A DNA stretch of 35,151 nucleotides from Myxococcales bacterium (GTDB lineage Bacteria > Myxococcota_A > UBA9042), in contig JBBISH010000065.1 in assembly GCA_037441385.1 (NCBI GenBank), forward strand, positions 1 through 35,151, read 5' to 3'. The notes beneath the pieces are model-generated. The model ran no database searches and was not told the origin of the DNA. It worked only from the letters and a program-made list of their open reading frames with translations. Both the position numbers and the translations under genes were made by a program. Shown one piece after another: positions 1 to 26,044 of the stretch; the first letter of the stretch is position 1; each line of letters opens with the position of its first letter.

Positions 1-2
1 CG

Positions 3-3000
3 GAAATTGCCCAGCTGCAGCTTGCCCTGATCCGCTTCGACCAGCACGTACAGCTTGCCGCGCGCCTGCACGTCCTGCACCTGGGTCGAGGCGTCGCCAT
101 AGACCGGGTAGAAGCGCGTGGGATCGATGAGGTTGGTGGCAAAGTCGGTGGTCGCCGGATCCTTGGCCGTGTCGACGTGCGCGGTGAAGCGCAGGTTGTC
201 CAAGCCCAGGTACTTGCCGGCGATGCGGCCCTTCAGGTAGACCGCGCCGCGGCCCATGATGTTGACGCTGTCGCCCGCCTGCCACACGCCGTCGCGCCAG
301 CCCTTGTCGCCGCCGCCGCGCTCCGTCTCGACCAGGTGCGCGCCCACATGGCTGACCGACGTGTCGGCGATGGCCAAGATGAACAGCGCCCGATCGCGGA
401 CCGTGAAGTTGCGCTGCAAGGTGGCCTTGTTGCCCGCCGGGTCCTTGCTCACCACCGTCAGCGTACTGCTGCCGACTGGCATGGGCGTCAACGCGTAGAA
501 GCGGCCATCGCGGCCTACCGGCACCGGGTTGCCCTGGATGGTGATGGTGTTGCCAGGCCGGGTGATGCCGCGCACCGGCAGCTCCAGCGCAGCCAGCTCC
601 TTGCCCGCGGGCGGCAGCCACACCTGCAACTCGGCCGCCGCCGGCAGCGCCGTCTCGGTCGACCCTTCGGCCAGACTGATCGGTTGCAGCGGCGCTCCCG
701 CCACGCTGGGTTGCCGCGGTTTGCCGCTTTCGGCCGCGCGCACGTCTTGCGCCAGGCTGTCCAGCAGTTCGCCGCCAAAGCTGGCCACGTCGCGGCTGGC
801 CTCTTGCGGCACGCCGGCCGTCGCCACGCCGCCCGGGGGCTTGGCGGGCTGACCAAAGCGGTGCAGCCAGATCGCGGCCGGGCCCTTGCCGCGCTCGTAG
901 ACCACGCGGTTGTTTTGCCCGGACTTGATGTTGAGCTCGCTGGGCAGCGCTCCGGCGCCCGCACGCACATCGTCGACCCACACACCTTGCGGCACGGCAA
1001 AGTCCTCGGTCGACGGATCGGACGAGCCGCTGTTGGCGCTGCGCCAACGCAATTCCACGCGGTGCGGCCCCATGGCCTCGCGGCTGGGCTTGGCATCGGG
1101 CACCAAGTTGCCCACGCCGACGACAAGAAGCCGCTCGCGGGCCACCCCGGCGCCCAGCAGCGCCTTTTCGACCACCTTGGCGGCGTTGGCGGTGCGCTGC
1201 ATGGCATCGGCGGCGCCGTCGTCGTGGACGCTGACCACCGCGATCTTGTCTTTCTCGGCCGAGAGCGAAACCGCCAGCTTGCCCAACCACTCCCAAGTCG
1301 ACTCGGTGGGCTGACCAGCGGCGTCGAACAAGGTGGCGCGCACGAACTTATCGGGTTCGCCCGCCGGCAGCAGTGCCGGCCCGCGATCCGCCAGCAGAAT
1401 GGTCTTTGGCACGGTTCGGTAGCCGGCCAGGTGGTCGCCTTCGGCCCACAACACTTCCAGCGCCATGCCATAGCGGCCGGGCTGCAAGTTTTGGGCGTTG
1501 GGCGCCCACAAGAAGCTAGACGGCACCGGCACTTGCAGCGTCTTGCGCGCCAGCACCTCGCCGTCCTTGTTCAAGAGCACCACGGCCGCGTCCTTGGCCT
1601 TGTCGGGCAGCTGGCGGGCACTGAGCATCAACTGACCCAGCACCTTGCCACCCGCCAGCGCCAACGGCTGCGACGGCACCAGCAACTCGGCGTTGCCCGA
1701 ACGTGGCACCAATTCCTGGCCAGCGACGCGCAGTCCCTTGGCTGTGGGCGCCACTAGGACGGGTCGGATCTCGGCGGCGGCCGCAGGGGCCGGAGCTGCA
1801 ACGGGGGGCGGATCCGAGGCCGGAACCGGAGCCCGAACCGGAACCTGTGCTGGTGCGGGAGCCGGAGCCGCAACCGGAGCCGGTGCTGGTGCGGGAGCCG
1901 CAACCGGAGCCGGTGCTGGTGCGGGAGCCGGAGCCGGAGCCGCCACCGGAGCCGGCGCAACGGGCGCACTGGCCTTGGGTGGTGGAGCGGCGCCCCAAAC
2001 CGGCTTGATGACGGCGTCTTTGCTGGCCTGGGCCGGCAAGGTCATGAATTCATCGCGGCCGCTGCCATCGGCGCCGCGGACGGCGACCAGCAGGCGTCCG
2101 TCGTCGGGGCGCAGGACGCGCGCCAGACCGCGAACTCCGGCCAGCTCCAGCGGATGGCCGTTGATCAGCCAGCCCGCCCGGCGTTGTGTGCTGTGCCAGG
2201 TGCCCACGGTGGGGGCGCCGCTAGCCTTGACTTCGAACGGCAACGGCGCCGACCACGCCCGGCTGCCAAAGCTGGTCTCGGCGCGCAAAATCACGGCATA
2301 GCGGCGTCCCGGCTCCAATTTGGCCAGCACCTGGCCGCCGCTGCTCAACTTGAACGTGACTTGCCGCGTGACATCACCGGTGCTGACCGACTCGTACATC
2401 AACTTGCCGCGGCGGCCGGTGTCGCCCACTGCACGGATCTCCAGAGTGTGCCGCGAGAATCCGCCGGACGAGTTGGTCCACACGCTCAGCTCGCCGTTCT
2501 GCGGGAGCACGACGGCGGTGGGATCGCTGGGCAGGTCGCGCGGCCGCTCGCCGGTCGTGACCATGGCCGCCTGCACGCGCCGCGCCTGCAGTTTCTTGCC
2601 GTCCACCGCCACGTCCAGCGTCGCCGAGTCCGCCTCGACGAGCACTACGCCCGGACCGGGCGTCACCGGGGTGACGTCGGCCCCCGGCACCACTTCCAAC
2701 TGCCCAGGCCCCACGGGCTCCAGGGCGCAGCGCACCGCAAAAGTCAGGCCTTGGGTCAGGCCCGGCGTCAGCAGCAGCGCCTGCTTGCCGTCTTCGACAA
2801 AGGTCGAGCCGGGCGGCAGCGTGTCGGGATCGACCTTGAACAGGTGCGTCCCGGCCGGCAGATTGACGAAGTGCGCGCGACCAAAGGCGTCCGCCGCGGC
2901 GTACTCGCCCGTGTCCACATAGATCCGCGCGCCGGGCAGGCCGTCCTCGCCCTCTTGCTGCACGCCGTCGCCGTTGCCGTCGCAGAAGATCTTGGTCAGG

Positions 3001-6000
3001 ACGCCGGCGCGATCAAACAGCGGATCCGCCTGCACCTGCAGCGCTGCCGTGGCGCGGTCCGACAAGGCGCCGCCGCCCGTGTCATACAACTGCGCAATCG
3101 TGCTCAGGTTCGCCCCAACCGCCGCCGAGGCCCCCACCGCCGCCAAGACCTTGAAGGTCAGCTCGCCCCCAGCCGGCAGTTCCAAACCCAGCGGCTGCCC
3201 GCCCGGCCCGGCCGCCCGCTTGATCGTCAGCAAAGTCCCCGAGATCGGCGCCAACGGCACGTCCACGGTCGGGCCGCTCGGCCGCACCAGCGTCATGCGC
3301 GCCGTGCCCGGCACCAGCGCCATCCCCGGCGGCAGCACTTGGCGCAGCTCGGCGCCGCCCTGGCCGGTCAACAGGTCCGGCGCCAGCGCCGTGGTCGAGC
3401 CGTTGACCACCTTGACGGTGATCCCCACCATCTCGCCCACTTGTGCAGACGTCTTGCTCAGTTGCAGCGACACGTGCACCAGCGACGCGATCTTGTCGAC
3501 CGGGATGTGGTTGTGGCGCGGCAGCGGCGGCGCGTTGTCGCCTTGGCGAGTAAACCGCTGCAAGTACTTGGGCAGGCTGGGGGTCAGCTTGGGCAGCGCC
3601 GCCTCGACCACAAAGCCGCCACTGTCCAGCATCACCAGGTTTGCTTCCGGAGCTTTGGCGGTCGACGGGAACGAGCGACCGATCGACGCCGCCGCCACGT
3701 CGATGCGATACGCGCGCCCAGGCGCCGCGGCAAAGATGTAAGCACCCGTCGCGTCGGTCTTTTGGCCCTGCTGGCCGGCCGGCAGCTCGTCTTGGGGCAC
3801 CGTCTGCCCTGGCGCAAGCGGATCGGCCGCGTCGTAGCTCAAGAACACCTTGGCACCCGCCACCAGCTCGCCGGTGCGCGGATCGTACAGACGTCCGGTC
3901 GGTTTGATGGGCAGATCCAGCGTACCGCCCGCGGCCCCCGGAGCGGTCCACTCCGTCTCATAGAAGACCACGCCGTTGGCGTTCAGCACGCGGAGCTTGC
4001 GTTTGCCTTCGGGCACTTGCATCAGCTTGTAGGCGCCCTTTTCGTCCGCCAGGGCGCTGGCCACGGCGCCGTCGCCGCTCAGCGGCAGCAACTGCACTTG
4101 GAAGCCCGGCAGCGGCAGATCCAGATTGCTTTGGAACACGCCATCTTGCGCGCCCACGTCCTCAAAGACGCTGCCGCGCACCATGCCTTCGCCCACGATT
4201 GCGCCCACGGTGACGCATGCGGCCTTGCTCGACCAGCCTGTGCTGCCCGGCAGGGTCGCATCGGCGACATTGCACAACACGGTCCCTTCGCTGACCTTTT
4301 CGCCCACCCGCGCCCGCACGGCCACGGTCGCGCTCTCGCCACCCAGGATGTTCAGCCCATTCACCGCCAGGACGACCGGCTTGGTCGCCTGTGTGCCGGC
4401 CCAACTGACTTGCGCCCCCTCGGGAACCAGCAGGTCGCCCGCGCCGGTGCCGGTGTCGGCGGTCGGCTGCAGACCCACGGGCAGCGGGTCGCGCAGCAGC
4501 AAGTTCTCCAGCGGCTTGGCGCCCAAATTCTTGATCTGAATCGTGTAGCGCAGCACGTCGCCGATCTGCACTTGGCCGCCGTTTTCGTCTTGAACGCTCT
4601 TGCTGACTTGTGCGACCTGGGCCTGGGCGCCCACCGCCACCACCGTGGGCTGGTTGCCGTTGCCGTCGTTGCCGTCGCTGTCGGTCAGCTCGGGGCTCAC
4701 GCCCTTGGCCTGCACAGTCGCTTGGTTTTGCGCCAGCGGACCGGCCAGAATGCGCGCCCGCAGCACCAGCACCCGGCTCTGGCCCGGTGCGATGTCGCCC
4801 AGCTTGGCGTGGACGGTGCGCGTGCCCACCTCGAACCAGCCAGCGTCCGCGTCTTGGGCCTCGGTCAGGGCCACGCCGTCCAACTGCAGGCTGGCACCGA
4901 CAAATTGCAGGTTCTGCGGCAATGGATCGTCGAGCGTGGCCGCGCTGGCCGTCGTGCCGCCGGTGTTTTGCACCGTGATCACATAGCGCAGCTCTTCGCC
5001 CACATCGGCGACGCCATTGCCGTTGCTGTCCTGGATTTCGGCCAGCTTGCTGGCCGTCTTGAGCGAGGCGCCCTTGCCCACGGTCAGCGCCGCCGGCCCC
5101 ACCGGCGTGGGCGGCACGCCCGTAGCCGTGGCGGTAGCCAAGTTGGTGATCAGCGTGCCATCGGCGACGTCGGGCCGCACGCGGGTCTGGAAGGTCAGGA
5201 TCGCCGCGTTCTCGATGCCGGCTTGCAGGGCACCTGCAGCCATTCCAGGGCCTTGGACGGTCTGGCCGGCCACGAGCGGCAGCGTGCCCCCGGCGCCGTC
5301 GGCCAGGGGCTGGCCATTGAGGCGCGTCGAACCCGGCACGTAGTCGGTACCCGCCGGCACACCATCAAACACCTTGACACCGCTCAGGTTGGTGTTGGCC
5401 GTCGCCACCAACGCCAGCTTCCAGGTCACGGTGTCGCCGGGCAGCAGCGCACCACCGTTGTCGTCGGTTGCCAGCTTTTGCGAAGCTTCCAGGGCACTTT
5501 GCACGCGCACCACCACGAGCGTGGGGTCAGCGTTGCCACTCGGGCCAGGATCGTCCGACAGCAGCGGCTTGGCGAGCGATTTGGCGGTCGCCTCGGCCTG
5601 GTTCGGGATGGTCAGGTTGTCGGCCACCGCGGCCTTGATCCGCACATCAAAGTGCAGAGCCACCGGCTTGCCGGGCAGCACGACCGCCAGGCCGGGCGTC
5701 GAGCTCGGATTCCAGGTCACTGTGCCGCCGGCAAACGTGCCACCACTGTCGGCCGAGACAAATTCCAGATTGTTGTCCAGCGGATCGCTGACCACCACGC
5801 CTTGCGCCGCGGCCGTGCCGTCCACCGACACGAGCAGTTCGTAGCGCAACACATCCAGCGGATTGGCCTTGCCGCCGTTCAGGTCCTTGACCGTCTTCTG
5901 CACCTTCAGCAGCGGGTGCGACGCAATCGGCACGCTCTGCGGCACGGCGCCGTAGGCCAGACCAGTCTCGCCTTCGCGGGCCAGGGCCGTGAACTCGGCC

Positions 6001-9000
6001 TTCTTGCCGTCTTCGGCCGTCGCTTTGACTTTGAGCCCCGCCAGCAGCACCACCGGCTTGCCCACCGCAATGTTCGCCAGCGCCGCAGAATCACTTGCTT
6101 TCCAGGTCAAGGTCTGGGTCTTGGCGTCGTAGCTCGCGCCCTGCAGCGCCGTCACGTCGAACACGCTGGCGTCCAAAGTGGCTTGCACCTGCACGCCGGA
6201 AGCGGGCTGATTCTGAGCCGTTACCTGCACTTGCAGCGTCACGGTGTCGCCGGGCTGGAGCGGCAGCTTGGCCGGCGCTTCGGGCAACAGCCCCAGTTGC
6301 ACATCCAGGGTGGGGTAGCTCACCGGCACCTGCAGGGTGTTCGAGCTCACCTCGGCCACGCCGTCGGCCTTGACGATCGCTTGATTGACGATCGTCGAGC
6401 CGCTGGCAACTCCGCCTGCGATCTTGGCTCTTACCGCAACGGCCACACTTTGGCCGGCCTGCAGGCTGGGCACGGCCCACACGACCTGCTGGCCGCTCAC
6501 GGCGCCTTGGCTCTCGGCCTGGATGCCGGTCAAACTGACCGCCAAAGTATCGGCAATCACAAGGTTGTTGGCGGTCGCGTTGCCCAGGTTGGCCGCAGTC
6601 AGCACAAACCGCACGGTGTCGCCCGGGAACAGGTGCTTGCCCGTCAAGTCTTCGTAGGTCTTGGTCAGTTTCAGAATCGGCCGCAGCGTAACGGTGGCCG
6701 TCGGCCCGCTGATCGGCGTCGGCGTTGCCAAGGCCGTGGCGGCCACGCTGCCAGAAAACGCAAGGACTTCTCCATCCTTGGCGCCGGCCGCAACCACCAC
6801 TTTGTAGATCAGCTTGGTCTGGCCACCCGCGGCCAGCGCCGGCAGCGACCACACCAGGTTCTGCCCCTGCTGCACGCCGCCGGGCGTCAGCATCTGGACC
6901 TGCCCGACCTTGTTCGGCAACGCCAGCGTCACTACCAAGCCGTCGGCCAGCGCCTTGCCCGAGTTCTTCAGCGTGGTCTCTAGCCGCAGCGTATGGCCGG
7001 GCGCCGTCTGGCCCACTTTGGCGACCCAGCCGCTTTCGTCTTCGATGGCCATCGTCGAGGTGTCGAACTTGGGCTTGGCCTGCACCACCAGCTTGGCTTG
7101 CGGCGGGTTGGCGACGCCGGGCAGCGTACCCAAAACCGTTACAATCTGGCCATCTTGCAGGCCAGCCGCCAAGGTCGCCTGCAGCGTCACGGCCACGTCG
7201 CCGGTCGGCGACAGGCCCACGGTCGGCACCGTCCAGTTCACCGCGTCGGTACCCAGCTTGCCGCCATCGTACGACTTGACGTCGCTGAACGTGCCCGCCT
7301 GCAGCAGCGCCTGCACCGGCACCAGTTGGCCCAGGCCGTCGCCGGTGTTGCGCACCGTCAGCCGCAGCACGACCGCGTCGCCGGGCTCGAAGGCGCCGCC
7401 GTTGATGTCCTGCACGGCCCAGCTCGACGTGGCGTAGTCGGGCGCGGCTTTGACCGTAATCTTGGTCACTTCGCGCACTGGGGTGCTCAGGTCCGCGTCC
7501 GTCAGCATCGGCACTTTGAAGCCGGCCGCGGCCAGCTGCCCTTGCATCGCCACCACCGAGCCGTCGGCCAACGGCTTCTTGAGCACTGACTTCAGGGTCA
7601 GGACAAAGCTGCCGCCGGGCGCCAGGGTACCCAGCTTCCAGATCGCCATGCCGGGCGTGACTTGGCCGTTGTTGTCGGCCACCAGCTGCTCCAGCTTGGG
7701 ATCCAGGGGCAGCGTGACGGTCACATCCTTGCCGCTGCCATCGCCGTCGTTCTGCAGCTTGAGCGTCCAGGTCAGGCTGTCGCCAGGGCGAGCGTCGCCG
7801 CCGTTGTCGTCCACCACCGTCAGGGTCGCCTTGCTAAAGTCGACGTTCGACTGCACTTGCACTTGCGTGGCGTCTTCTTTGGCGGCCGACAGTGGGTCGT
7901 CCGACTTTTGCGGCGCCGGCAGGCCGCTGTAGACCAACTGCGCTTGATTGGCGATGACCAGCGCGTTTTCAGCGCCCGCGAGCACGGTTGCGTCAAAGCG
8001 GAACACCAACTCGTCGGTCGCCGCCACGCCCAGCGACGCCACCACCGGCCAGGTGATGGTGTTCAAGGTCGCGTCGAACTTGCCGCCGTCCAAGGGCACG
8101 ATGTCCGTCAGGCCTTGCGGCAGCGGGTCGCTGACCACGACCGATTCGGCGTTCGCGTTGCCCGCGTTCTTGACGCGCACCACCCAGCGCAGCACCTGCT
8201 TGGGTTTGACGGTGCCGCCGTTGAGTTGGGCATTGGTCTTTTGGTCGAACACGTCTTTGGTGAAAGTGAGCTTGACCTGACTGTCCACCGCAAAGCAGGT
8301 GGCCGTGCCGCCCGGTTTCGGCGTGGTGCCGGGTGGGTTGGTCTGCACCGGGGTCGTGTTCTCGGTCGCGGTAATCGTAGCCTGATTGCAGACTTGGCCG
8401 CCCTTGGTCAGCGGCTTCTTCAGCTTGGCCTGCACGGTCAGGACTTTTTGCGCGCCGGCCGCCAGGCTGCTCAGCGTCCACTTGGCGACGCCGCTGGCGT
8501 CGACCACGCCGCCGTCCGACAGCTGGATCTGCTCGACTTCTTTGGGCAAAGCGTCCGTGACTACCACACCGGTGCCGGCCTGGTTGCCCGAGTTGACGAT
8601 CGTCAAGGTCCAGGTCACCGGGTCGCCGGCCTGCACGGTCGCGGCCGACACCGCCTTGGTCGACGCGCCAAAGTCGGGCAGGTTCACCACCTGGAAGCTG
8701 ACGGTGTTGGTCTTGCCGTTCTTGGGAGCCTCGATAAAGGCCAACTCGGCAAAATTGCTAACATTGGTGCCGCTTGCAGTGGCCTTGTCAACCACAGCGG
8801 TCAGCGCCACTTCGGTGGGCTTGCCGGGCTCCAGGCTGGCGATGCTCCACTTGGCTACGCGGCTGGCAGCGTCAAAACTACCCCCAGTCACCACCACTTG
8901 CGTGAGCTGAGTCGCCAGGGTGTCGCTGACGGTGATGCCGGTAGCCGGCGCGTTGCCCGTGTTGACCAGCGAAATCTTGTACTGGATCTGGTCGCCGCCC

Positions 9001-12000
9001 TGCACTTGGCCGCCGTTCAGATCCACAAAGCTCTTGACCGACGTCACCAGGTTCGGCGCGGAATTCACTTTGAAGCTGGTGGGATCGGTCTTGCCGGGCA
9101 GCGCCGGGTCGTCGGACAGCGCCGGCGCACCCAAGCCGTCGCCGGTCAAGCTCGCCTGGGCCGATACCACCTGATTCTGGGCGATGACCGCCGCCAGCTT
9201 GCCACTGAACGTCAGCGTGACTAAGGCGCCGCCCTTCTGCAAGGTGCCAACATCCCAGGTAATCTTCTGACCAGAGACCGTCCCGCCCGCGGTGGCCTGC
9301 AGACCGGTCAACACGGGATCCACGTCGATGCTGACCTTGCCCGATTGCACCGCGCCGCTGCCAGTGTTCTGCAATTTCAACGCGTAAGTGACCGTGTCGC
9401 CTGGGCTGAAGGTCGCGCCGCCGCTCGATGTGGCCACCAGGCTCCAAGTGCTGATGTTCGGCTGCGCCTGCACCTTGATCGTGGCCGAGACGGGCACCGG
9501 CTTGGGCAGCTCGCCGCCCGACGCTGTGGCGTTGTTGCCGATGGTCGTGCCGGTGGGTACCAGCGGGCCGACCTTGGCCTGGAATTGCAGCACCGTTTGC
9601 CCGCCCGCGGCGATCGACGGCACCTTCCACGTGATCTGCTTGGCGGCCGCGTCAAAGGCCCCCGCGCCGGTAATGGCGCTCACGTCCTGCAAATTCGGGT
9701 CGATCGGATCGACCACACCAAAATCGCCGCTGGGCAGCTTGCCACTGTTCTTGAACGTTAGCGTGTACTGCAGCGTGTCGCCGGGTTCGAGATCGCCGCC
9801 ATTGACGTCGACCACGGTCTTTTGCGACGTGCTCAGGTCGGGGCCGCCCACCACCGTCTGCATGGGCGTCTGCACCACCACCGCGGGGCTGTCGCTGGGG
9901 CTCAGGGTCGCCACGTTGGCAAACGTCGAGCCAGCCTGCGTGTCGGCCTTGACGAGCGCGATGAAGCTGAGGGTCTGGGTGGCGCCGGGCTTGATGACCA
10001 CGTCCTTGGCCTGCACCGTGCTGCCGACCAGGGCGAGTTCGGGCGATTGACTCGAAACAAAGCTAAGTTGCGACGGGATCGGGTCGGTGATCGTCACCAG
10101 GCCCACCACCGGACCCGAGTTCACCAAAGTGATGTCGAAGCGGACCTGGTCGCCGGCTTCCAGCGGCGTGTTCGGGCTAAGGTCGGTGACGGTCTTGCTG
10201 GAATTAACAAAGCTGGACGCGGCGTTGAGCGTCAGTTTGGTGGGCTCGCCGGTGCCGCTGGTCGCGGGGTCGTCGGTGAGGAAGGTCTTGCCCGCCACCC
10301 CCACGCTGATTTGGGTCGAGACGACGTGGCCATTGATCGGCGAAACCCCGGCAGCCGCAAGGGCTTGTGCGGACAACACTGTGGCTGTCCAGGTGCAGAC
10401 GGCCGTCTTGCCTGGGTCAAGCCCAAGGTTGGTGCCGGCGATTTGGCCGGTCTTGTTGGCGCCGCCGCCTGGGCTCACGACCCAGGTGTTGCCCGGCAGG
10501 CCCTGCTGGTACGAACAGTTGACCGCGCCGAGCTGCACTTCTTTGGGCGCATCCCAGGTGAAGTTGACCAAGTCGAGCGCCGACGAGGTGTTTTGCACGG
10601 TGAAGGTGTAGGTGACCGTGTCGCCCGGCTTGGCGTTGGTGGGCGCGACCGACAGCTTGGGCTCTGCGATCGCCGCCGCGACGATGGTCACGGTGACGCT
10701 ATTGGTCGCGTAACTGTCGTTGTAAACAGTGGTCGATCCCTTGGTGCCCACATAGGTGAAGGCCAAGTTGCCCGTGCTGGTCGAGGTCGTGGTCCCTGGG
10801 TTGGCGGCCACTTGCAGCTTGAAGGCGATCTTGCGCACCGAGTTGCTGCCGGTCCAGGTGATGGTGCCCAGCTTGAGGCCGGCGGCGAGCGGGCTGGTGC
10901 CAGGGGCCGGATCGGCCACAGAAACGCCGTCGACTACCAGCGAATTGGCGACCCACTGCATGCCCGCGGGCGGAAATTGGTCCAGCTTGAGGACATTGTT
11001 GTCGGCATCGAGCTGCCCGTTGTTCTGCAGATCGATCTGATAGGTGAGAACTTCGCCCGCCGAGGCGGCAACGGCTTCCTTGGAGTTGACGGTGTAGTGG
11101 CTGACGATGTTCTTGTAATTGGGCGCCTTGCGGTTGATCTGCAGGATCGTGTAGGCGTAGAAGAACAGTTCGCCGTCGCCGCCCAAGTTCGAACCGTTTG
11201 GGTACACATAGGTGTTGTCGGCCAGGCTGCCGTTGCCCGAACTGACCAGGAAATACGCCTGCGTATCGCCCGCTTTGACGCGATCCGATACGTCAAACGT
11301 GTCCAGGTCGATGCCGGCCTGGGGCGTGGAGTTCATGATGTTGTGCGGCTCGTTGTTGCCCGCGCCGCCGATGAGGTCCTGCATGTTCTTGGGATCGTTG
11401 CCAAACTGCACAAAGTCCCAGCAGTTGGTACAGCCGGCCGAGTACCCGGTATCGGTGTCCTGCTCAGGATTGCCCAGGTGCTGGTCGCCTTCCAACGCGT
11501 AGTACGACAGCTTGGCCTCTGGCGGGTCCGCGACCAAGAAGCCGCTGATCGGGAAGCTGATTTGACCAAGCGTGGTCTGTTGCTCGTCCAGGAGCACAAA
11601 GCCGTCGTACAGCAAGACGTCGCGCTTCATGAATTCGCTGGTCGACTCGTACACCACCACCAGCGACCAACTGGCATGGCGGGCCTGGCAGTATTCGTCG
11701 GCGTCGGGACCGGCGGTCTGGCAGCAGTAGGGGGGGTAGAAGGGTGGCGCCGGCGGCGGAGGATTCCACAGCGCCGGGCATTTTTCCGCGTCGGTACCCT
11801 GCCTTAGGGCGCCCGCTTTGGCCGCGACATCACCGACGGTGTAGGTGCCGTTGTAGTTGCCGGCGCTTTTCGGGTGGGCGGCCACCAGCTTGGTCACGTC
11901 AGCGCGACACAAAAAGTGAGTACCCGAGCCGCCTTGGCCACCCGGCACGCCCGGATCCGTCAGGGCGCGGCACAGGTCGGCGGTGACGGTGTGGACGCTG

Positions 12001-12356
12001 CCGTCCGCCAAAGTGAAGGTGGCGGTGTCGTCGGGACCGTTCAGGGCCGAACCGCCCCAGTACAGCAGCGCATCCTTGATGACGGCATCGCCGGGCAGCT
12101 TGTTCTGGGTGTTGTCCGAACTTTGCGACAGCAGTTTGTCGTTGATCTGCGCGTAGGTGAAGTTGGTCATGAGCGAGGCGCCGAATTGCTGCGCCCCGCC
12201 ATACACTTGGCGAGTCAAGAACGGAGTCTGCGAGTAGTTGCCAACCTTGAGCGCGAGCGCGGGCCGGGCGGTGATCAGCAAGGTGACCAGGCCGGAAAAA
12301 AGCACCAGCGCGCGCCAGATGGCGGTGTTCCTCATGCAGGGCAATGGCTTTGGCAC
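3..12356 (-). CDS. Giant (>=4118 aa, 3'-truncated by window edge) exported DUF11-repeat adhesin-like protein with SdrD-B-like domains, degenerate OmpA-like domain and probable C-terminal OM beta-barrel
   Basis: Manual translation of most of the region reads in one minus frame, and the ORF track lists no stop-bounded ORF in that frame. GTG at 12356 lies 7 nt after AGGAG (alternative ATG 12335). Signal peptide [31 protein letters not shown]. Head has [32 protein letters not shown] and LEGD motifs. Repeats such as [28 protein letters not shown] span ~4200-11125. [29 protein letters not shown] at ~2920-3000. OmpA-like at ~1050-1340. [34 protein letters not shown] at 1-260. Confidence 0.92.
1820..1960 (-). 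repeat. Imperfect 30/36-bp tandem repeat encoding an Ala/Pro linker ([12 protein letters not shown])n in the giant protein
   Basis: About three copies of GGTGCTGGTGCGGGAGCC(GGAGCC)GCAACCGGAGCC on the + strand, with variable numbers of GGAGCC hexamers. Confidence 0.9.
4200..11125 (-). repeat. 17 tandem ~125-150 aa DUF11/conserved-repeat Ig-like domains (an 18th at ~3020-3480)
   Basis: Recurring K-x-x-x-D-x-NGG-x-x-x-PGD-x-(L/V)-x-(Y/W/F)-x-(I/L)-x-x-x-N-x-G ... (S/T)DPLP ... NQA pattern about every 370-450 nt. Divergent at the DNA level. Confidence 0.85.
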
Positions 12357-12516
12357 GAGCGAACTCCTAGCGACCGCGGGCGCGCGACCACCGATTGTGC
12401 CGAATCGCTAGCCGTTGTGCGAGCGCCAAACGCTCAACCGTCTCCTGCGCGTCGGGCGCCACTCTGCAAATCGGGACGGCGGGTGGGGCGCTCGGCCCCC
12501 CTCCTCTAGCTAGCGA

Positions 12517-14307
12517 CTAATACTGCGGATTCCAGAGGGCCACGGAACTCTGTCCAATCAGCCCGTCGCTGGTCGTGCCCACGCCGCCCAGAAGCAGCAC
12601 GTGGCCCGTGTTCAGCGTGATCGCCTGACCCAGCGAGCGCCCACCGCCGGGCATTTCATTATCAACCATCGGCACTTGAATGGTAGTCGGCGGATCCTGG
12701 GTGGGGTCAACCCGCACGTAGATGGCCTCGGCCGTAGACAAGTGTATGGTATCACTGGCGCTTCCGCCGGCAACAAGAATCTGCCCTTGGGTCGTCGGGT
12801 GCGGCACGGCCGCCACCATCGGCGCGCCGCGGCCGGTCGACAGCGCGTAGCCATCGCCGTTGATGTAGTTGCCCTTGCCCACGTCGAACACGTCGAAGCG
12901 AGCCAAGGCCTTGGTGTGGTCCTTGTCGGCAAAACCACCCACGAAGTAGACGTAGCGGTAGGTGGGGCTGCCCGAGCCGCGCGGGACCGACACGTACGCC
13001 GCACCGGGCAGCGTGCGCGCTACCGGCATGCCCTGAGTGAGCGGCTCCCACAAGAAGGCTTCGCACTTGCCGTCGAACAGATCCGAGCGGCAGCCCTGGC
13101 CCTTGTTCGAGATCACGCCGCCGCCCGCCGAGGTGAATTGCACGACTTCAAAGGTGTCGTGGACCTTGTCGTCGTTCTCGCCGCCGATCAGCATCACGTA
13201 GCCGCCCCCTGCGCCTGGGATCACCGCCGCGGCGTGGTTCCAGCGGGCAGTGTTCAGCCGGCCCTGTGCCAAGTTGCCGCTGACGGGGTGCCAGAGCTCC
13301 CACGTATTGCCGGCGCAGTCCAGGTCGTTGCCTTGGTCATCCTTGCATGGGGTGTCGCCCTTGCCGCCCAGAATCAAGAAGAAGTCGTCGCTGGCGAACA
13401 TCTGTACGGCCGTGGCGCCGGCGCGAGCGAATTTGAGGTCGGGGACGGGACCGGCCGAAGTCTGAACCTTGCCGTTCTTGTCGATGTATTCGATCGTGTT
13501 GGTGATTTTGGGGCCCGCGTCGCCTTTGATGTAACCGCCCGCGATGACGATGGCCGACTTGCCGGCCGCCGAAGCGTGGAAGGCGCGCGCGGTCTTCAGC
13601 GCGTACTCTGGGCCGGTTTGGCTGAGCGGGCTCAGCACGCGGGTATTGGGGTCGTACAGCGTGACGGCGTCTGAGAATTCGCCGTACGAGGTTGGGTCAA
13701 AGGCCTTCTTGGCGCCTTGGTTGGGAACCGCGCCGCCCACGATGATGACCCGCCCTTCGTTGCCCGGCAGCGTAACCGCGCTGGAGCCGGCGCGGCCGGC
13801 GCCCATGTCGGCGGCCCCGGCGGAGCTGATGGCCGGAGCGAATCGGTTCATCCGCGTCACGTAGGGCGTCAGCGTGGACGCAGAGCCGTTGACCAGCGCG
13901 TCGTACGGGATGCTGCGGCCCCGCCCAAGCGGCAATTCGGGCTGGCCAGAGGCCCCCTTGGACCAAACCTCGACCCGAACTTGCTGGCCGGTGCCATAGG
14001 TGATGCCGCCGCAGCCGCCGCCGGACGTGCAGTTGAGGTCCAAGCTCATGCCGGCCGTATACGGACGGATGAGCTGGAACGAGTTGTCGGCCACGCCCGG
14101 AAGCTCGGCGGTGATGGCCACGAACTTGTCGCCGGCCAGGCCAAACGGGTCGTCCTCGGTCGAGGTGGGGTGGGCAATCTGCAAGGTGACCCTGGTCGCC
14201 GGCGCCTGGGTGCCCGACGAGCAAGCGGCCGCCGCCAGGGCCAACAGCATGGCCGCGGTCGCAGCGGCGGGCCAAGTGCGGCGCAAGCGCGAGGTGGGAG
14301 CAAACAT
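12517..14307 (-). CDS. Kelch/galactose-oxidase-like beta-propeller lipoprotein (596 aa)
   Basis: ATG 14307 preceded by GGAGGA. Lipobox MLLALAAAA|CSSG. Repeated R-x-x-H/S...(V/L)(I/L)xGG blades (ARAFHAS..VIAGG, ARWNHAA..LIGG, GRSLGQA..LLLGG). The first 315 aa of the 911-aa track ORF are spurious. Confidence 0.85.
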   Translation of the reverse strand: MFAPTSRLRRTWPAAATAAMLLALAAAACSSGTQAPATRVTLQIAHPTSTEDDPFGLAGDKFVAITAELPGVADNSFQLIRPYTAGMSLDLNCTSGGGCGGITYGTGQQVRVEVWSKGASGQPELPLGRGRSIPYDALVNGSASTLTPYVTRMNRFAPAISSAGAADMGAGRAGSSAVTLPGNEGRVIIVGGAVPNQGAKKAFDPTSYGEFSDAVTLYDPNTRVLSPLSQTGPEYALKTARAFHASAAGKSAIVIAGGYIKGDAGPKITNTIEYIDKNGKVQTSAGPVPDLKFARAGATAVQMFASDDFFLILGGKGDTPCKDDQGNDLDCAGNTWELWHPVSGNLAQGRLNTARWNHAAAVIPGAGGGYVMLIGGENDDKVHDTFEVVQFTSAGGGVISNKGQGCRSDLFDGKCEAFLWEPLTQGMPVARTLPGAAYVSVPRGSGSPTYRYVYFVGGFADKDHTKALARFDVFDVGKGNYINGDGYALSTGRGAPMVAAVPHPTTQGQILVAGGSASDTIHLSTAEAIYVRVDPTQDPPTTIQVPMVDNEMPGGGRSLGQAITLNTGHVLLLGGVGTTSDGLIGQSSVALWNPQY

Positions 14308-14369
14308 CAGCGAGTCCTCCGCGCTGGGGGCCGCCATGGCAGCCAACACCCAGCAGGAACAAGAAAAAC

Positions 14370-15986
14370 TTAGAACTGCACGTGGGCCGAGTAACCCGTG
14401 GCCGCAGCGCCCGACTGCGTGCCGGCGTAGATGCCCGCACCGGCGCCACCCACCACCACCACACCGATGGCCGTCCAGAACCACCAGGTCTTGTAGACCG
14501 GCGTGCTGTCCTTGTCCTTGTCGGGGTCCAAGAGCTTGGCGTACGGGTCCTCGGGCACCGGGTCCTTGACCTTGACCCTGGGTTCGACCTTGGGCTCCAC
14601 TTTGGGCTCGACCCTGGGCTCGACCTTGGGCTCGACCTTGGGTTCGACCTTGGGATTGTCGTCGGGCGGCGGGGCCACGATGTCGGGCGCATCGGGCTCG
14701 GGCTCGGGCGCTCCGGCGTAGCAGGCCGGCGTCACGGCGACGTCGCTGGCGCAGCTCTGCAGGGCGGCACGCACCTTGCTCTCGGCATCCAGCGTCTGCA
14801 TCTGCAGGTTGCTCAGGTTGGCCGCATACTCGATCTTCTCGATCGAACAGGTCTTTTTGGTCTTGGCGTTGTACAGGAACAGGTACAGCTCCAGCGAACT
14901 GGGCCGCTTGCTGACCAGACCGAACAGCAGGTGGCTGGCACCGACTTGGCGGGCAAACATGCTTCCGGAATTCTTGAAGATCTTCTCGCCAAAATTGCCC
15001 TTGTTGGCCATGTCCTTGATGTCGTCGGCACTGACGCCCACGGCGATCTCGTCCTGGGGAGCCACCTCGATCTGCAGCACTGCGCGAACCGACAACGGCT
15101 TGCCCTTGAGCGCGATCGCCTGACCCCAGGGAGCCGCATTGCTTTTGCGTACTTGCAGGTAGTGGGTGCCGGTGAGCAAGTCCTTGGCCGTTGCGGGTGC
15201 CGTGCCGATCTTGACGCCATCGACGTAGACCTCCGAGTTCTCTTCGCGGCACTCCACGGTCACGTCGGCGCGGGGCTTGGCTTCCAGGGCTTGGCGGGTC
15301 TTCTCTACGAATGCCTTCAGATCCTTGTGCTTGCGGGCATCCACCACCAGGCTGGGTTGAATGACCAGCGCCTTGGTCAGCCAGTCGCCCGCCGTCTTCT
15401 GGTCCCCGGCGTCGTGGGCCAGGCCAGCCAAGGCCACGTAGGCGTCGCTCAGCTTAGAAAAGTCGACCAATTCAGCGAAGTTCTGTTCGTAACGGTCGGC
15501 CGCGGCGGTGATCAGCTTGACGGCGTCCGGAGCGTTTTCGCCACTTTCGGCCAGCATGTCGCGGGCCGCCGCCATCAACTTGTCGGCCTTTTCCAGGGCC
15601 TTGACGGCCGGGCTCGCCGGACGATCGCGCGGGGCGCCGTTGCTGCCGCCGCCGACGGCTTTGCCCGTTTCGGTGGCCTTGGCGGGGATCATCTTGACGT
15701 AGCCGGCGGCGTCCAGCATCTGCCGCAGGTATTCCTCGATGCGTTGCACAGATAGGGCGCCGACTTCGCCGCGCTTGACAAAGTGGACGATCCCAAGGGA
15801 GTTTTTCTCTTCGTCCGCCCAGGCCTTGCTGCCCAACTGCGACCCGGCAGGCAGCGCCGCGGTCAGCCAGCAAAGTGGCAACAGCAGGGCGACAGCGACG
15901 GGACGCAAGATGGTCCTGACGCGGGCAAGGGCAGCCGTGGACGGAGGCAGGGCGGCGCCGGCTCGGGCGGCTTTGATCGCGAACAT
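14370..15986 (-). CDS. PEGA-domain exported protein with TPR-like region, (PKVE)n spacer and C-terminal PVYKTWWFW hydrophobic segment
   Basis: PEGA motif SEVYVDGVKIGTAP..LLTGTHYLQVRK. N-terminal hydrophobic signal-like stretch. C-terminal WWFWTAIGVVVVGGAGAGIY typical of myxobacterial PEGA proteins. Start codon uncertain (15986 or slightly upstream). Confidence 0.8.
   Translation of the reverse strand: MFAIKAARAGAALPPSTAALARVRTILRPVAVALLLPLCWLTAALPAGSQLGSKAWADEEKNSLGIVHFVKRGEVGALSVQRIEEYLRQMLDAAGYVKMIPAKATETGKAVGGGSNGAPRDRPASPAVKALEKADKLMAAARDMLAESGENAPDAVKLITAAADRYEQNFAELVDFSKLSDAYVALAGLAHDAGDQKTAGDWLTKALVIQPSLVVDARKHKDLKAFVEKTRQALEAKPRADVTVECREENSEVYVDGVKIGTAPATAKDLLTGTHYLQVRKSNAAPWGQAIALKGKPLSVRAVLQIEVAPQDEIAVGVSADDIKDMANKGNFGEKIFKNSGSMFARQVGASHLLFGLVSKRPSSLELYLFLYNAKTKKTCSIEKIEYAANLSNLQMQTLDAESKVRAALQSCASDVAVTPACYAGAPEPEPDAPDIVAPPPDDNPKVEPKVEPKVEPRVEPKVEPKVEPRVKVKDPVPEDPYAKLLDPDKDKDSTPVYKTWWFWTAIGVVVVGGAGAGIYAGTQSGAAATGYSAHVQF
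14578..14654 (-). repeat. 12-bp tandem repeat, 6 copies, encoding (P-K/R-V-E)6
   Basis: GG(C/T)TCGACCTTG-type units on the + strand; protein NPKVEPKVEPKVEPRVEPKVEPKVEPRV. Confidence 0.92.
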
Positions 15987-15998
15987 CAGAAAAACCCC

Positions 15999-16019
15999 AT
16001 GCAAGATAACACCTTGCAT
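15999..16019. promoter_or_regulatory. Perfect 7-7-7 inverted repeat, candidate operator upstream of the PEGA gene
   Basis: ATGCAAG-ATAACAC-CTTGCAT, 13 nt upstream of ATG 15986 in an AT-richer intergenic stretch. Confidence 0.4.
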
Positions 16020-16152
16020 CATGTCTAGCGCGCTCAGCACGGCGCAAGGGCTGCGCGCGTTGCCGGCTCGATCCTGTAGTTTGCCTCAATTGCACAGCAG
16101 ATCAAAACCTCTGGCGGTTCTGCAAAGCAATTTCATGACGCGGCGGTCGCGT

Positions 16153-16944
16153 TCAAGGCTGTCCGCGCGCCACCACCACCAAGCCCACCGGCACTTCGAC
16201 GGCCGTGGTCACCACTGCGTTCGTGCCCGTGAGCGGCGCCGCCAGCATGGCCGACGAGCCGCCGTCCAGGTTCAGCGCGTCGCGCAGCCCCGGCCCCCCA
16301 ACCGGCTCGGACAGCGCCAAGGCACGGGCAAATTCGTCAACGCCCATCACACCTTCACTCACCGCAAGAACCACACGACCCAGCGAGTCGTGGCCGATGG
16401 CCACCCGGCGCGCCAAGTCGGTCCGGCGGAAGCGCGGTCGCTCGCCCGCCACGAGCAGCCGCGGCCCGCACTCCACGGCAAATTCCAGGTCGGGCGGCGC
16501 ATGAAACGTGCGCGCATGGTCCACCAGGGGCCGCCCGCCAGCGATCGCAAAGACACCGTGGTCGACACGGCGCAGGGGGGCCAGCTCGCGCCCGCCGCTG
16601 ACCAGCAGCCCCAGCGGCCGGTATTCCGGGTCAAAATAGCCGGCGTTGATGGCCGCCAGCGCGTGGCTGTAGCTGCGAAACTCCTCGGCCGAAGCCAGCT
16701 TTTTGCCCAGCGCCGTGGCCAGCACCACCCGCAGCTCGTGGCGGCGCAAGTCCAGGCGCAGCAAGTGGATGACCACGCTGGCGCGGTCCGTGCCCAGCGG
16801 CACATCGGTGCGGGCGTATTCCAGACCGGACGGCTCGCGCTGCCAGTGCAGCGGCCGCATCGGCGCGGGGTGGCGACAGGCTGCCAGCGCCGCCAGCCCA
16901 AGCGAACTGGCCAGCAGCGACCGGCGGCTGCGAGCGGTCATCAT
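16153..16944 (-). CDS. Phosphodiester glycosidase (NAGPA/DUF2233) family protein, probable Tat lipoprotein
   Basis: AINAGYFD, ARRVAIG and ALNLDGGSS family motifs; N-terminus SRRSLLASSLGLAALAA|C. Confidence 0.85.
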   Translation of the reverse strand: MMTARSRRSLLASSLGLAALAACRHPAPMRPLHWQREPSGLEYARTDVPLGTDRASVVIHLLRLDLRRHELRVVLATALGKKLASAEEFRSYSHALAAINAGYFDPEYRPLGLLVSGGRELAPLRRVDHGVFAIAGGRPLVDHARTFHAPPDLEFAVECGPRLLVAGERPRFRRTDLARRVAIGHDSLGRVVLAVSEGVMGVDEFARALALSEPVGGPGLRDALNLDGGSSAMLAAPLTGTNAVVTTAVEVPVGLVVVARGQP

Positions 16945-17075
16945 ACGGAATCCGTTCGAATCGAATCGCAAAGCCTGGAAGATCCGCGGGCCCGAACCGG
17001 GGTCCCCGCATGATTCTCGCCAGTTGCCGGACGGGTTACGGTAGCAATACAGGCGTGAATCGGGTGGGGTGCATA

Positions 17076-19571: not shown

Positions 19572-19628
19572 TGGGAACTCCTGACAGCGCAAAAGGGCAG
19601 AGGCCGCGCCATGGGCACGCGGCGGGCA

Positions 19629-19656
19629 ATTCTAAGGAGAAACCGCGCCCGCGCAA
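19629..19656 (-). promoter_or_regulatory. Candidate sigma70-type promoter for the VKOR fusion gene
   Basis: Minus strand TTGCGC-N16-TAGAAT, about 58 nt upstream of ATG 19571. Confidence 0.45.
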
Positions 19657-19708
19657 GGGGCACCCCGTGCAAGGCCGCTCGATTGTCGATTATTCCCGGC
19701 GGGCGGAC

Positions 19709-19951
19709 CTACAAAAGCATCGAACCGGTGGCTTTTTTGCCCGCTTCGGTCAGCGCAAAGGTGCCGGCGTCGTAGCTCACCAGCTCGTCGGCCACCAGCG
19801 CCTCCATCAGCTCGCTGAACTCACGGTGGCCGCGACCAAACCGCAAAGTACTGAATTCGTGCAAATCCTTGATATGCATCGCCCCGCCTTGGCGGGCCAG
19901 TTGCTTGAGCACGCCCTTTTTGGCGGTGGCTTCGTCGCTCATCGCGCCCAT
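19709..19951 (-). CDS. Small (80 aa) hypothetical protein, winged-helix-like
   Basis: GGAG 6 nt before ATG 19951; sequence pattern ..GVLKQLARQGGAMHIKDLH..FSELMEALVADELVSYDAGTFALTEAGKK. Confidence 0.65.
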   Translation of the reverse strand: MGAMSDEATAKKGVLKQLARQGGAMHIKDLHEFSTLRFGRGHREFSELMEALVADELVSYDAGTFALTEAGKKATGSMLL

Positions 19952-20017: not shown

Positions 20018-21364
20018 CTACTTGCCGATGCAGAAGCTGGAAAAGATCGACCCCAGGACGGCGTCGGGCGCAAGATGCCCCAGCATTTCGGCCAGTTCAT
20101 CGGCGGCGTCGTGCAAATCGGCCGCCACCAACTCCAGCTCGCGGCCTTCGTGCAGCCCTTGGTGCGCCCGCTGCAGCCCCTCGCCGGCGCGGAGCAAGGC
20201 GTGGCGATGGCGCTCGCGGCTGATCACCACCTCGGCGCCGCGCGGGCCGCGAGCCAATTCGCGCACTTGCGCCACCACCTGGTCCCGCAGTTCGCTCACG
20301 CCCAGGCCGGTGGTGGCCGCGACGGGCCATTGGCCAGCTGGCGCGACGGCGACGTCCACCTTGGTCGCCACGGCGATCACCTGCGCCTGGGTCGGCGGCA
20401 GCGGCAAGTCAGGCCGGCCAGTGGCGCTGGCGTCGCGACACCACAGCACCACGTCGGCGCGCTCCACTTCGCGGCGGGCCCGCTCGGTGCCGGCGCGCTC
20501 CACCGGATCCTCGGCCTCGCGCACGCCGGCCGTGTCGATCCAAGTGATGAGCACGCCGCGCGGCGCGGTCTGCACTTCCAGTGTGTCGCGCGTGGTCCCG
20601 GGCCGGGCGTCGACCAGCGCGCGATCGTGCTCGACCAGGGCGTTGAGCAGGGTCGACTTGCCCGCGTTGGGCGCGCCGAACAGCGCCACCCGCGCACCGC
20701 GCAGCCGCACCTGGCCGGCGCGGGCAGTACCAGCCAACTCGGCTATGGAACTGCGCAATTCAGCAAGATGCGCCAACAGCGGCGCCGGGTCCAGGTGCGC
20801 CAGGTGCGGCTCGGCGGCAAAGTCCAAGCGCGCCTCGACTTGGGCCAGCACGTGCAGCAAAGGCGCGCGCAGCCTGGCAATTCGCGCCGACAGGCCACCG
20901 TCCAGCTGCTGGAGCGCGGTTTGCCGCTGGGTCTCGCTTTGGGCCGAGATCAAGTCGGACAGGGCCTCGACCTGGAGCAGGTCCAGCTTGCCAACCTCGT
21001 AGGCACGCCAAGTGAATTCACCCGGTTCGGCCAGGCGAGCCCCCAAAGCGGCGCAGGCGTCCAGCAGCTTGTCGATCACCGCCGGCGAGCCGTGCACCTG
21101 CAACTCGGCCACGTCTTGGCCGGTAAAACTGCGCGGTGCCTTGAAAAAGACCACATAGCCGCGGTCGATGCGCTGGCCATCGCGCGGATCAGTCAGGGCG
21201 CACAGCTGCAGCTGGCCCGGCGGATCGGCTGGGCGTGCGCTAAGTTGCGAGGCAATGGCGTGGGCCTGCGGGCCGGATAGGCGCACCACCGCCACCCCGG
21301 CCGGCCAGACGGGCGTGGCCGGGGCAACGATCGTGTCGCGTTCGGCGGGCGGCAGCACCTGCAA
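20018..21364 (-). CDS. mnmE: tRNA uridine-5-carboxymethylaminomethyl(34) synthesis GTPase MnmE (TrmE)
   Basis: DTIVAPAT..GVAVVRLSG, PRSFTGQDVAELQVHG, GAPNAGKSTL, PGTTRD, DTAG, C-terminal FCIGK. Start (TTG) approximate. Confidence 0.97.
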   Translation of the reverse strand: MQVLPPAERDTIVAPATPVWPAGVAVVRLSGPQAHAIASQLSARPADPPGQLQLCALTDPRDGQRIDRGYVVFFKAPRSFTGQDVAELQVHGSPAVIDKLLDACAALGARLAEPGEFTWRAYEVGKLDLLQVEALSDLISAQSETQRQTALQQLDGGLSARIARLRAPLLHVLAQVEARLDFAAEPHLAHLDPAPLLAHLAELRSSIAELAGTARAGQVRLRGARVALFGAPNAGKSTLLNALVEHDRALVDARPGTTRDTLEVQTAPRGVLITWIDTAGVREAEDPVERAGTERARREVERADVVLWCRDASATGRPDLPLPPTQAQVIAVATKVDVAVAPAGQWPVAATTGLGVSELRDQVVAQVRELARGPRGAEVVISRERHRHALLRAGEGLQRAHQGLHEGRELELVAADLHDAADELAEMLGHLAPDAVLGSIFSSFCIGK

Positions 21365-21383
21365 AGGGCAGTGAACGACGGGC

Positions 21384-22352: not shown

Positions 22353-22412
22353 GATTTGGACTCCGTGCCCGCAGCGGGGCAGGTGCGAGTGCGAGTGGTG
22401 TAGAGTTGCCGA

Positions 22413-23171: not shown

Positions 23172-23295
23172 GGATGACTCTCCGTGCGGTCTGTTTGTGC
23201 ACCGCGGACTAGTACTTGAGCGCGGGCTGCGCGGTCGACTGTGTCACGACATTGGGCCCGAATAATCGCCACTTGAGCAGATGATCCGCTCGAAT

Positions 23296-23308
23296 GACGC
23301 AGTGCGTC
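23296..23308. promoter_or_regulatory. Palindrome just downstream of the etfB promoter, candidate operator
   Basis: GACGCA-G-TGCGTC. Confidence 0.35.
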
Positions 23309-23326
23309 GCAAACGGACCGCAGGGT

Positions 23327-23355: not shown

Positions 23356-23380
23356 CGTGTTGCGTCCGCCGTGGCTTAGG

Positions 23381-26002: not shown

Positions 26003-26044
26003 CGTGTCCTTTGGCGGAACTGCCGCCGTCCGCGGCCAGTGAAT

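Follow-up and report, generated by a model that had tools for sequence, protein, structure and literature searches.

In the type Va and type Ve (intimin/invasin) systems, a single chain carries a repeat-domain passenger together with its own barrel, which the linker must cross, and in type Ve a wall-binding-type periplasmic domain lies within the same chain. The barrel of the Autotransporter family (PF03797) comprises 12 C-terminal strands with a linker helix in the pore. A wall-binding-type domain N-terminal to a large C-terminal barrel is also the arrangement of SlpA from Deinococcus (7ZGX/8AE1) and OmpM from Veillonella (8BYM), which use SLH domains and a coiled coil ahead of a barrel of 30 strands (SlpA) or fewer. 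Single-chain outer-membrane barrels of 38 and 40 strands were predicted by Solan et al. (PNAS 2021, PMC8346858), and three 38-strand barrels were predicted in D. radiodurans (bioRxiv 10.1101/2022.05.18.492506); these barrels, larger than the 36-strand SprA, are known from prediction only. As regards stalks, a study of DUF11 repeats, there called CLIPPER (Protein Sci 2025, PMC12617251), describes them in surface adhesins, one with an OmpA-like anchor, and reports crystal structure 9IFR, in which the triad Lys715/Asp748/Asn806 forms an intramolecular isopeptide bond, while some repeats were also found without the triad. The present work concerns a 35,151-nucleotide (nt) stretch of DNA from an uncultured Myxococcales bacterium (contig JBBISH010000065.1 of assembly GCA_037441385.1; hereafter, the window), which begins with the greater part of a giant minus-strand gene for a DUF11-stalked protein of 4,928 amino acids (aa), preceded by genes coding for a Kelch-repeat lipoprotein and a PEGA-domain protein.

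The giant protein shares the single-chain plan of types Va and Ve and, with type Ve, the placing of a wall-binding-type periplasmic domain within the chain. It differs from type V in having about 38 or more strands against 12, a Cys-containing and probably cross-linked passenger, an OmpA-like and an Ig-like domain between passenger and barrel, and conserved lipoprotein and PEGA partners. A first reading made from the sequence alone (the sequence-only reading) had judged that the protein does not fit classical type Va topology, which agrees with the modelled strand number and with the lack of any match to an Autotransporter or intimin barrel family, both in the Pfam scans and in the last 853 aa at E up to 0.1. 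The order of wall-binding-type domain and barrel recalls SlpA and OmpM; unlike them, the giant protein places a divergent OmpA-like domain before its barrel, lacks a coiled coil and has its stalk and tip, 3,500 residues in all, in front, and Pfam scans of the window part, both whole and in pieces, matched no SLH domain. The type 9 C-terminal sorting domain (Por_secre_tail) was not matched either, the C-terminus being the barrel. The nearest described stalk protein, the 2,129-aa B9T28_05395 of Acinetobacter silvestris (the source of 9IFR), likewise joins a CLIPPER stalk to an OmpA-like anchor, and the available part of its description (PMC12617251) gives it CshA-like tip domains and cadherin-like repeats and does not describe a giant barrel; compared with it, the giant protein continues after the OmpA-like domain with an Ig-like domain and then a barrel of about 38 or more strands, carries a DUF3344-like tip and has two conserved partner genes. 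Its predicted barrel would resemble the 38- and 40-strand ones as a single-chain barrel larger than SprA, likewise known from prediction only. Finally, as in LptD-LptE, SusC-SusD, BtuB-BtuG (8BLW) and SprA-plug/PorV, a barrel gene adjoins a lipoprotein gene; BtuG is also a beta-propeller, the pairing of the giant protein with the Kelch protein being one of gene order, with no sequence relation to these pairs.

Completion of the giant gene across two contigs

An open reading frame (ORF) list with open ends allowed gave a stop-free minus-strand frame of 4,118 codons (3..12356), which starts at a GTG (12356-12354) and is open at its 3′ end. A Shine-Dalgarno-like AGGAG lies on the same strand 7 nt 5′ of this start (12368-12364; 12364..12368 in forward numbering). 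The hidden frame of at least 4,118 aa with a ribosome-binding site, which the sequence-only reading had seen running off the left edge, is confirmed. The window is the entire contig C65 from its base 1, within a metagenome-assembled genome of 221 contigs; the frame stops at the left edge because the contig ends there, and the gene was absent from the closed-ORF track because ORFs running off a contig are not listed by default. The G+C content of the window is 63-70%, which explains the long chance frames on the opposite strand, and the minus-strand frame is the coding one, as its DUF11 score of 409.8 bits and its conservation in relatives demonstrate.

The missing end was found on contig C10 of the same assembly, whose bases 8-133 are the exact reverse complement of window positions 1-126. 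This 126-nt identical overlap is shared by the left end of the window with C10 alone among the contigs of the assembly. The remaining 810 codons occupy C10 bases 134-2561 (locus L004) and are followed by a stop at 2562-2564; once the 41-residue overlap was removed, the joined product amounted to 4,928 aa, of which the window part is the first five-sixths. In a genome of the same genus (G005), the gene is one contiguous ORF, and a single BLASTP alignment covers residues 1-4928 of the joined product against 55-5010 at 81.9% identity. Moreover, all 24 family-f1 genomes have the C-terminal module, many of them within open frames of about 4,400-5,100 aa. The junction was also crossed by a 2,608-nt Logan contig from run X1, whose last 151 nt lie on window positions 1-151 and which therefore extends 2,457 nt past the left edge. 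Run X1 is probably the source sample, which makes this contig a separate assembly and not independent DNA; over window positions 1-1500, no differences or indels were seen against the Logan assembly of this run. An in-frame stop or a frameshift, either of which would have overturned the sequence-only reading, was seen neither there nor in the G005 alignment.

C10 opens with 7 bases that differ from the window. Bases 1-12 of C10 presumably resemble the end of an Illumina adapter, and such a remnant may be the reason why the assembler broke the giant gene at this point. The split over two contigs of so fragmented a genome and these mismatched bases could be taken to mean that C65 and C10 do not belong together or that the gene is broken in the organism. 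This is very improbable in view of the overlap unique to C10, the separately assembled contig across the junction, the 4,928 codons without a stop and the collinearity of the product with one ORF each in G005 and over 15 further genomes. The giant gene is whole, and its relatives keep it as one ORF. Nothing usable came from scans for promoters and terminators, made around its start and past its stop; the two terminator-like sites at the start fall within the signal-peptide codons. No RNA holder of this stretch was listed.

A predicted, very large C-terminal barrel as the core of a family

The C-terminal module begins within the window, at residues ~4005-4118 (3..344, minus strand), with the motifs GRG..Y.KG, YPVYGD and GN. 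They had been placed at the start of a probable barrel before the rest of the gene was available, and the family consensus shows them conserved. Pfam and NCBIfam searches of the last 853 aa returned no family at E up to 0.1. An AlphaFold2 (AF2) model of the same segment, built on 38 sequences, reached a pLDDT of 80.9 and a pTM of 0.77 and was almost purely beta, with about 38 long strands; the motif region upstream of the model probably adds strands, up to three more. The module also holds a small, highly conserved insert (P0002 residues 97-180). Foldseek matched the model to large outer-membrane barrels, such as SprA, LptD, MtrB, TonB-dependent transporters and SlpA, with TM-scores of 0.15-0.23, low values that are to be expected when barrels differ in size. 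In a wide structure search (VIA), Deinococcus SlpA was the top match (7zgx_A), with Z 14 over 426 aligned residues at a root-mean-square deviation of 11.8, and some relatives of the giant protein match Porin_4 or OMP_b-brl. The C-terminus is therefore modelled with confidence as a very large all-beta barrel of outer-membrane type with about 38 or more strands, as had been proposed for this part before its sequence was recovered.

At E up to 1e-3, an exhaustive HMMER search with the module retrieved 2,291 relatives, counted as representatives at 50% identity, and 508 of them reached 1e-30 or better. Among the 150 best, 40 have at least 4,000 aa, 41 have 2,000-3,999, another 41 have 1,200-1,999 and 28 are shorter. 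Within this set, the module ends at most 30 residues from the C-terminus in 140 of the 142 relatives whose match reaches the module end, and 118 of 121 have Y, F or W in the last position. The giant barrel also ends in an aromatic residue, which is the usual signature of substrates of BAM, the machinery that assembles beta-barrels. The N-terminal extensions range across the family from practically none to 4,400 aa: a complete protein of 1,006 aa consists of a signal peptide, the Ig-like domain and the barrel only, and two members, P0247 and P0128, have only OmpA, Ig and barrel.

In public records, close relatives from Myxococcota metagenome-assembled genomes are named 'hypothetical protein' or 'uncharacterized repeat protein (TIGR01451 family)', and the label 'OmpA family protein' is given to members of ~1,700 aa from Geomonas, Geobacter and their allies. 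An even sample of the phylum had the module in 79 of 301 genomes, including all 21 of the window's family. The Ig-like domain and the barrel are thus the constant core of a large family that has no Pfam or NCBIfam model. The sequence-only reading had described a stalk and tip fused to an outer-membrane module, and a single chain joining DUF11 stalk and tip to the OmpA-like, Ig-like and C-terminal parts was indeed found; the homologous loci with separate DUF11 subunit genes that it had envisaged for comparison were not encountered, each complete relative examined being one ORF.

Stalk and tip

The stalk consists of 17 tandem DUF11 (CLIPPER) Ig-like repeats at residues 417-2713 (4218..11108, minus strand, as are all parts of the giant gene), which were delimited by a profile of the protein's own repeats and by Pfam. 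The scores were 409.8 bits with Pfam DUF11 (PF01345; cut-off 24.6), 313.3 bits with NCBIfam TIGR01451 (cut-off 24) and 134.6 bits with the NCBIfam isopeptide-domain model TIGR04226. The own-repeat profile also detected a degenerate 18th repeat at residues 2960-3105 (3042..3479) with a domain E of 0.0035. A complete Lys-Asp-Asn triad is present in 9 of the 17 tandem repeats, with Lys near the repeat start, Asp in a V-x-D-P-L-P strand and Asn near the repeat end; six repeats lack both Lys and Asn, and two have a partial triad. By analogy of these positions with the described triad, the nine triad-bearing repeats are probably cross-linked by isopeptide bonds. A phmmer search of the PDB with one DUF11 repeat returned only a spurious designed armadillo protein and not 9IFR.

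The chain begins with a signal peptide at residues 1-35 (12252..12356), judged by eye to be of Sec type from its basic n-region, its hydrophobic core and the A-L-A before L36, and it has no lipobox. All orthologues begin alike and conserve the mature end x-V-x-G-T-Y-P. The tip, or head (residues 36-416; 11109..12251), contains 8 Cys, and its AF2 model (~380 aa, 22 sequences) reached a pLDDT of 82.4 and a pTM of 0.87. The model is made of jelly-roll beta-sandwiches, and this predicted fold class is clear. Foldseek matched it to double jelly-roll viral capsid proteins and PNGase F at TM-scores of only 0.17-0.25, and the best hit of the wide structure search had Z 6.1, with matches resembling carbohydrate-binding modules for model residues 208-375 (Z 4.2-4.7). 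The head of the giant protein itself had no Pfam match, PF11824 included, and a PDB sequence search with it found nothing; PF11824 (DUF3344) was matched by 9 of 22 orthologous heads, the best at E 3.8e-4, and a protein-atlas lead for the head agreed with this, leading to surface proteins of archaea and of Bacillota. Proteins of 800-2,000 aa (L057-L060: G030:C71, G025:C75, G032:C1, G037:C104) also contain the second half of the head, with E-values between 1e-4 and 1e-7. In those four genomes, the barrel module was not matched, and the tip is therefore a shuffled module.

Modules between stalk and barrel

After the 17 repeats, weak CarboxypepD_reg and SdrD_B-like beta-sandwich modules occupy residues 2714-2959 (3480..4217). 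These Pfam matches are mostly under the cut-offs: CarboxypepD_reg reached 35.6 bits in one piece (cut-off 32.3), and SdrD_B 17-24 bits (cut-off 29.7). The degenerate repeat is followed by an SdrD_B-like domain (Cys3125, Cys3210) and further beta-rich modules at residues 3106-3454 (1995..3041), with a weak fn3 match at E 0.016, and then by a low-complexity Ala/Pro spacer of 74 residues (~3455-3528; 1773..1994), which is 90% Ala and Pro in its best 40-residue stretch. Pro-rich spacers of differing sequence, including PKPA or KPEPA runs, stand at the same place in most family-f1 orthologues. A conserved region (residues 3529-3675; 1332..1772; weak FlgD_ig match, E 0.07) separates the spacer from a divergent OmpA-like domain at residues ~3676-3775 (1032..1331), which was placed by Pfam and by an orthologue profile. 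The Ig-like domain beside the barrel, at residues 3910-3985 (402..629), is of Glucodextran_B / Big_6-like type, with 26.4 bits for Glucodextran_B against a cut-off of 27, and throughout the family it is constantly found beside the barrel. The mature protein has 16 Cys, all ahead of the barrel and arranged in within-domain pairs or clusters, and its last 853 residues are Cys-free. These assignments reproduce the domain order of the sequence-only reading, from signal peptide, Cys-rich head and 17 DUF11 repeats through SdrD_B/carboxypeptidase-like, DUF11 and SdrD_B-like domains to the Ala/Pro linker, the OmpA-like and the Ig-like domains.

With regard to the OmpA-like domain, a profile of 19 orthologues was compared with the PDB, and the 27 best of its 35 matches were all OmpA-like (OmpA family, MotY, Rv0899, YfiB, Pal, RmpM), with a best E of 3.2e-4, while the protein's own copy matched the Rv0899 domain at E 0.15. 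PF00691 was matched by 15 of the 19 orthologues at E up to 1 (best 2.4e-4), and none of those listed exceeded the cut-off. Distant family members have bona fide OmpA domains of 71-81 bits, in some cases preceded by Big_1/Invasin_D3 or SdrD_B domains. They share the same order of OmpA, Ig and barrel, and consequently the puzzle of an OmpA-like domain ahead of a barrel is a property of the whole family.

The conserved Kelch and PEGA genes

Next to the giant gene on its upstream side, and in the same orientation, lies the gene for a Kelch-repeat beta-propeller lipoprotein (12517..14307, minus strand), identified by its Kelch matches; the likely start is the ATG at 14307, giving 596 aa with a lipobox-like A-A-A-C. 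The ORF listed there is longer (911 aa; 12517-15252, minus strand) and overlaps the PEGA ORF, and conservation starts far inside it; its first ~315 codons are probably untranslated. The first gene of the trio (14370..16040, minus strand), recognized by Pfam and synteny, codes for a PEGA-domain protein with a hydrophobic N-terminus, in which a (KVEP)n spacer follows the PEGA domain and leads to a hydrophobic helix at the C-terminus. Its K-V-E-P run recalls the Pro-rich rod with which TonB spans the periplasm.

Of 23 loci with an orthologous head, 22 have a Kelch homologue immediately upstream in the same orientation. Such a homologue is also upstream in 8 of 10 regions of short family members from other families, where the two misses may be misjudged gene starts, and it accompanies none of the four loci that have the head-like domain without the barrel. 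The PEGA gene is kept in 7 of 8 distant Kelch-bearing loci. The persistence of both genes beside short, stalkless members indicates that the travelling unit is PEGA, Kelch and Ig-barrel, to which stalk and tip are a variable addition. The sequence-only reading was right about the single-chain fusion, the giant barrel and the departure from type Va, and it had overlooked these two conserved upstream genes. A complex prediction between the Kelch propeller (497 aa) and the spacer-to-Ig cassette (446 aa), run without controls, gave no usable answer (score 0.00). Downstream of the giant gene, the C10 ORFs 2895-4811, 4808-6166 and 6182-7018 were considered as further partners and set aside, since no family could be assigned to them and G005 does not keep them in synteny. 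A search of the literature on DUF11/OmpA outer-membrane barrels, giant Myxococcota barrels and PEGA-Kelch lipoproteins found neither the anchor nor the trio described.

Probable surface display and its alternatives

The giant protein has the architecture of a fibrillar adhesin, with a tandem-repeat stalk, a distinct terminal domain and an anchor, and it is probably, though with moderate confidence, an outer-membrane-anchored, surface-displayed protein of fibrillar-adhesin type. Surface display is favoured because the head is DUF3344-like, CLIPPER stalks occur in surface adhesins and the Cys residues all lie outside the barrel. The chain would be exported by Sec, and its barrel would then be inserted by BAM, while the OmpA-like and Ig cassette would remain in the periplasm near the cell wall. 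From there the spacer would thread back through the wide barrel, a topology like that of type Va, where the segment ahead of strand 1 crosses the pore, and the cross-linked stalk, some tens of nm long, would present the tip outside as a fibrillar adhesin. The SprA pore is ~7 nm wide. The predicted barrel would be about as wide as that of SprA and could pass folded Ig-like domains, in which case display would amount to a type-V-like self-display via a pore whose width admits domains locked by disulfides and isopeptide bonds; the proposed width would explain how the passenger can carry both kinds of bond. The Kelch lipoprotein could act on the barrel as plug, lid or cap, or help to assemble it, in the way that LptE, SusD and BtuG serve their own barrels. 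This passage of the stalk through its own barrel is a tentative proposal, somewhat doubtful on the present evidence.

Several observations weigh against this interpretation. Surface exposure and an adhesin function are what we infer. Barrel closure, strand number and lumen were all read from the DSSP string of a model that starts ~70 residues into the module. No specific structural relative of the head was found, at TM-scores of at most 0.25 and Z of at most 6.1, and the Pro-rich spacer, considered as a family-wide hallmark, was present in 1 of 12 wider relatives and was dropped as such. The partnership with the Kelch and PEGA genes is read from gene order. With regard to the wall-binding role, the own OmpA-like copy scored 14.5-16.4 bits with PF00691, below the cut-off of 27.2. 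OmpA-like domains bind the peptide stem through a conserved Asp and a conserved Arg; the Asp of the 'TD' motif is kept here (as HDD), and the canonical peptidoglycan-binding Arg of 'LSxxRA' is Ala in both the own copy and the orthologue consensus, with an invariant Arg 4 residues upstream. By its sequence, the domain has an OmpA-like fold with a non-canonical binding site, so that the earlier assignment stands as to the fold, through the orthologue profile and its matches to solved OmpA-like domains, and falls short as to the Pfam cut-off and the canonical Arg.

Moreover, tethers of SlpA/OmpM type keep everything N-terminal to the barrel in the periplasm, and by analogy the stalk could be there too. 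The giant protein would then be a scaffold or tether with its barrel in the outer membrane and its N-terminal 4,000 residues in the periplasm, linking outer membrane, wall and perhaps the PEGA protein as tethered to the inner membrane. A wall-binding-type domain followed by a barrel is the order of SlpA, the top structural match; members that have only OmpA, Ig and barrel (P0247, P0128) need no export step; the partners look like envelope proteins, one a lipoprotein and the other with a Pro-rich spacer and a C-terminal membrane helix; and the Pfam scans found no export signal of a known outer-membrane secretion system. For the chlamydial OmcB, which contains DUF11, a periplasmic location has likewise been given. 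We nevertheless consider such a scaffold, the chief rival reading, fairly unlikely, since a rod of 17-18 DUF11 repeats and ~8 other Ig-like modules is estimated to be several periplasm widths long, the domain types of stalk and tip are those of monoderm and archaeal extracellular proteins, and isopeptide-locked stalks were described for surface adhesins (PMC12617251).

Otherwise, the chief role of the barrel might be to serve other cargo as a channel or translocon, with the Kelch protein as its gate, much as BtuB has its propeller lipoprotein BtuG, SusC its SusD and SprA its plug, and with the fibre as an accessory that captures substrate or prey material. Such a role would suit a Kelch gene that goes with the barrel rather than with stalk or head (present for 8 of 10 short members against none of the four head-only loci), minimal members made of signal peptide, Ig and barrel, a first Foldseek match to SprA, the 36-strand type 9 translocon, and a second half of the head that weakly resembles carbohydrate-binding modules (Z 4.2-4.7). 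It is nonetheless distinctly improbable, given that the fold matches are generic to large barrels (TM 0.15-0.23), that the trio comes without evident cargo, energy-source or transport genes, and that it would leave unexplained why, in 40 of the 150 best representatives, the barrel is fused to stalks as long as 4,400 aa.

Other genes in the window and nearby

Two plus-strand ORFs of 424 aa (15739-17013) and 921 aa (17010-19775) diverge from the trio and have no Pfam family. The minus strand from 20018 to 35114 carries ordinary housekeeping genes, namely those for MnmE, the alpha and beta subunits of electron-transfer flavoprotein, a tetratricopeptide repeat (TPR) protein, UvrC, a SurA/PpiD-like chaperone and a YkuD L,D-transpeptidase. 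A plus-strand ORF of 1,504 aa (29263-33777) lies opposite the UvrC and chaperone genes and is probably a chance frame of high-G+C DNA. About 5 kb downstream of the giant gene (C10, L004 7557-12815, plus strand), a 1,752-aa fusion protein combines a CheB methylesterase, a CheR methyltransferase, several PAS domains, a histidine kinase and a receiver.

Significance

The stalk type, giant predicted barrels and a CLIPPER adhesin with an OmpA-like anchor are already known, and the gene is already called in public relatives. A literature search did not find described a large family built around a constant OmpA-like/Ig/barrel unit, its barrel having about 38 or more strands, with fused cargo of 0-4,400 residues and conserved Kelch and PEGA partners. 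The family combines a barrel possibly larger than any solved one with a constant Ig-like domain, a frequent OmpA-like domain and two conserved partners, and the protein extends isopeptide-type CLIPPER stalks to environmental Myxococcota. Its natural series of members, from short to giant, suits questions of surface display, of pore size and of the role of the lipoprotein.

These findings bear on the question of how long surface fibres that are pre-folded or cross-linked arise in diderms without type 1, 5 or 9 machinery. If the stalk were periplasmic, the protein would be an unusual envelope scaffold. It is conceivable, though unlikely, that the trio is an undescribed outer-membrane display and export system, in which the fused cargo would pass its own pore of ~38-40 strands as Ig-like domains already folded and locked by disulfides and isopeptide bonds and the lipoprotein would gate or plug it afterwards. 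If this were true, export by the trio would represent a new branch of self-secretion beside type V, in Myxococcota and their relatives.

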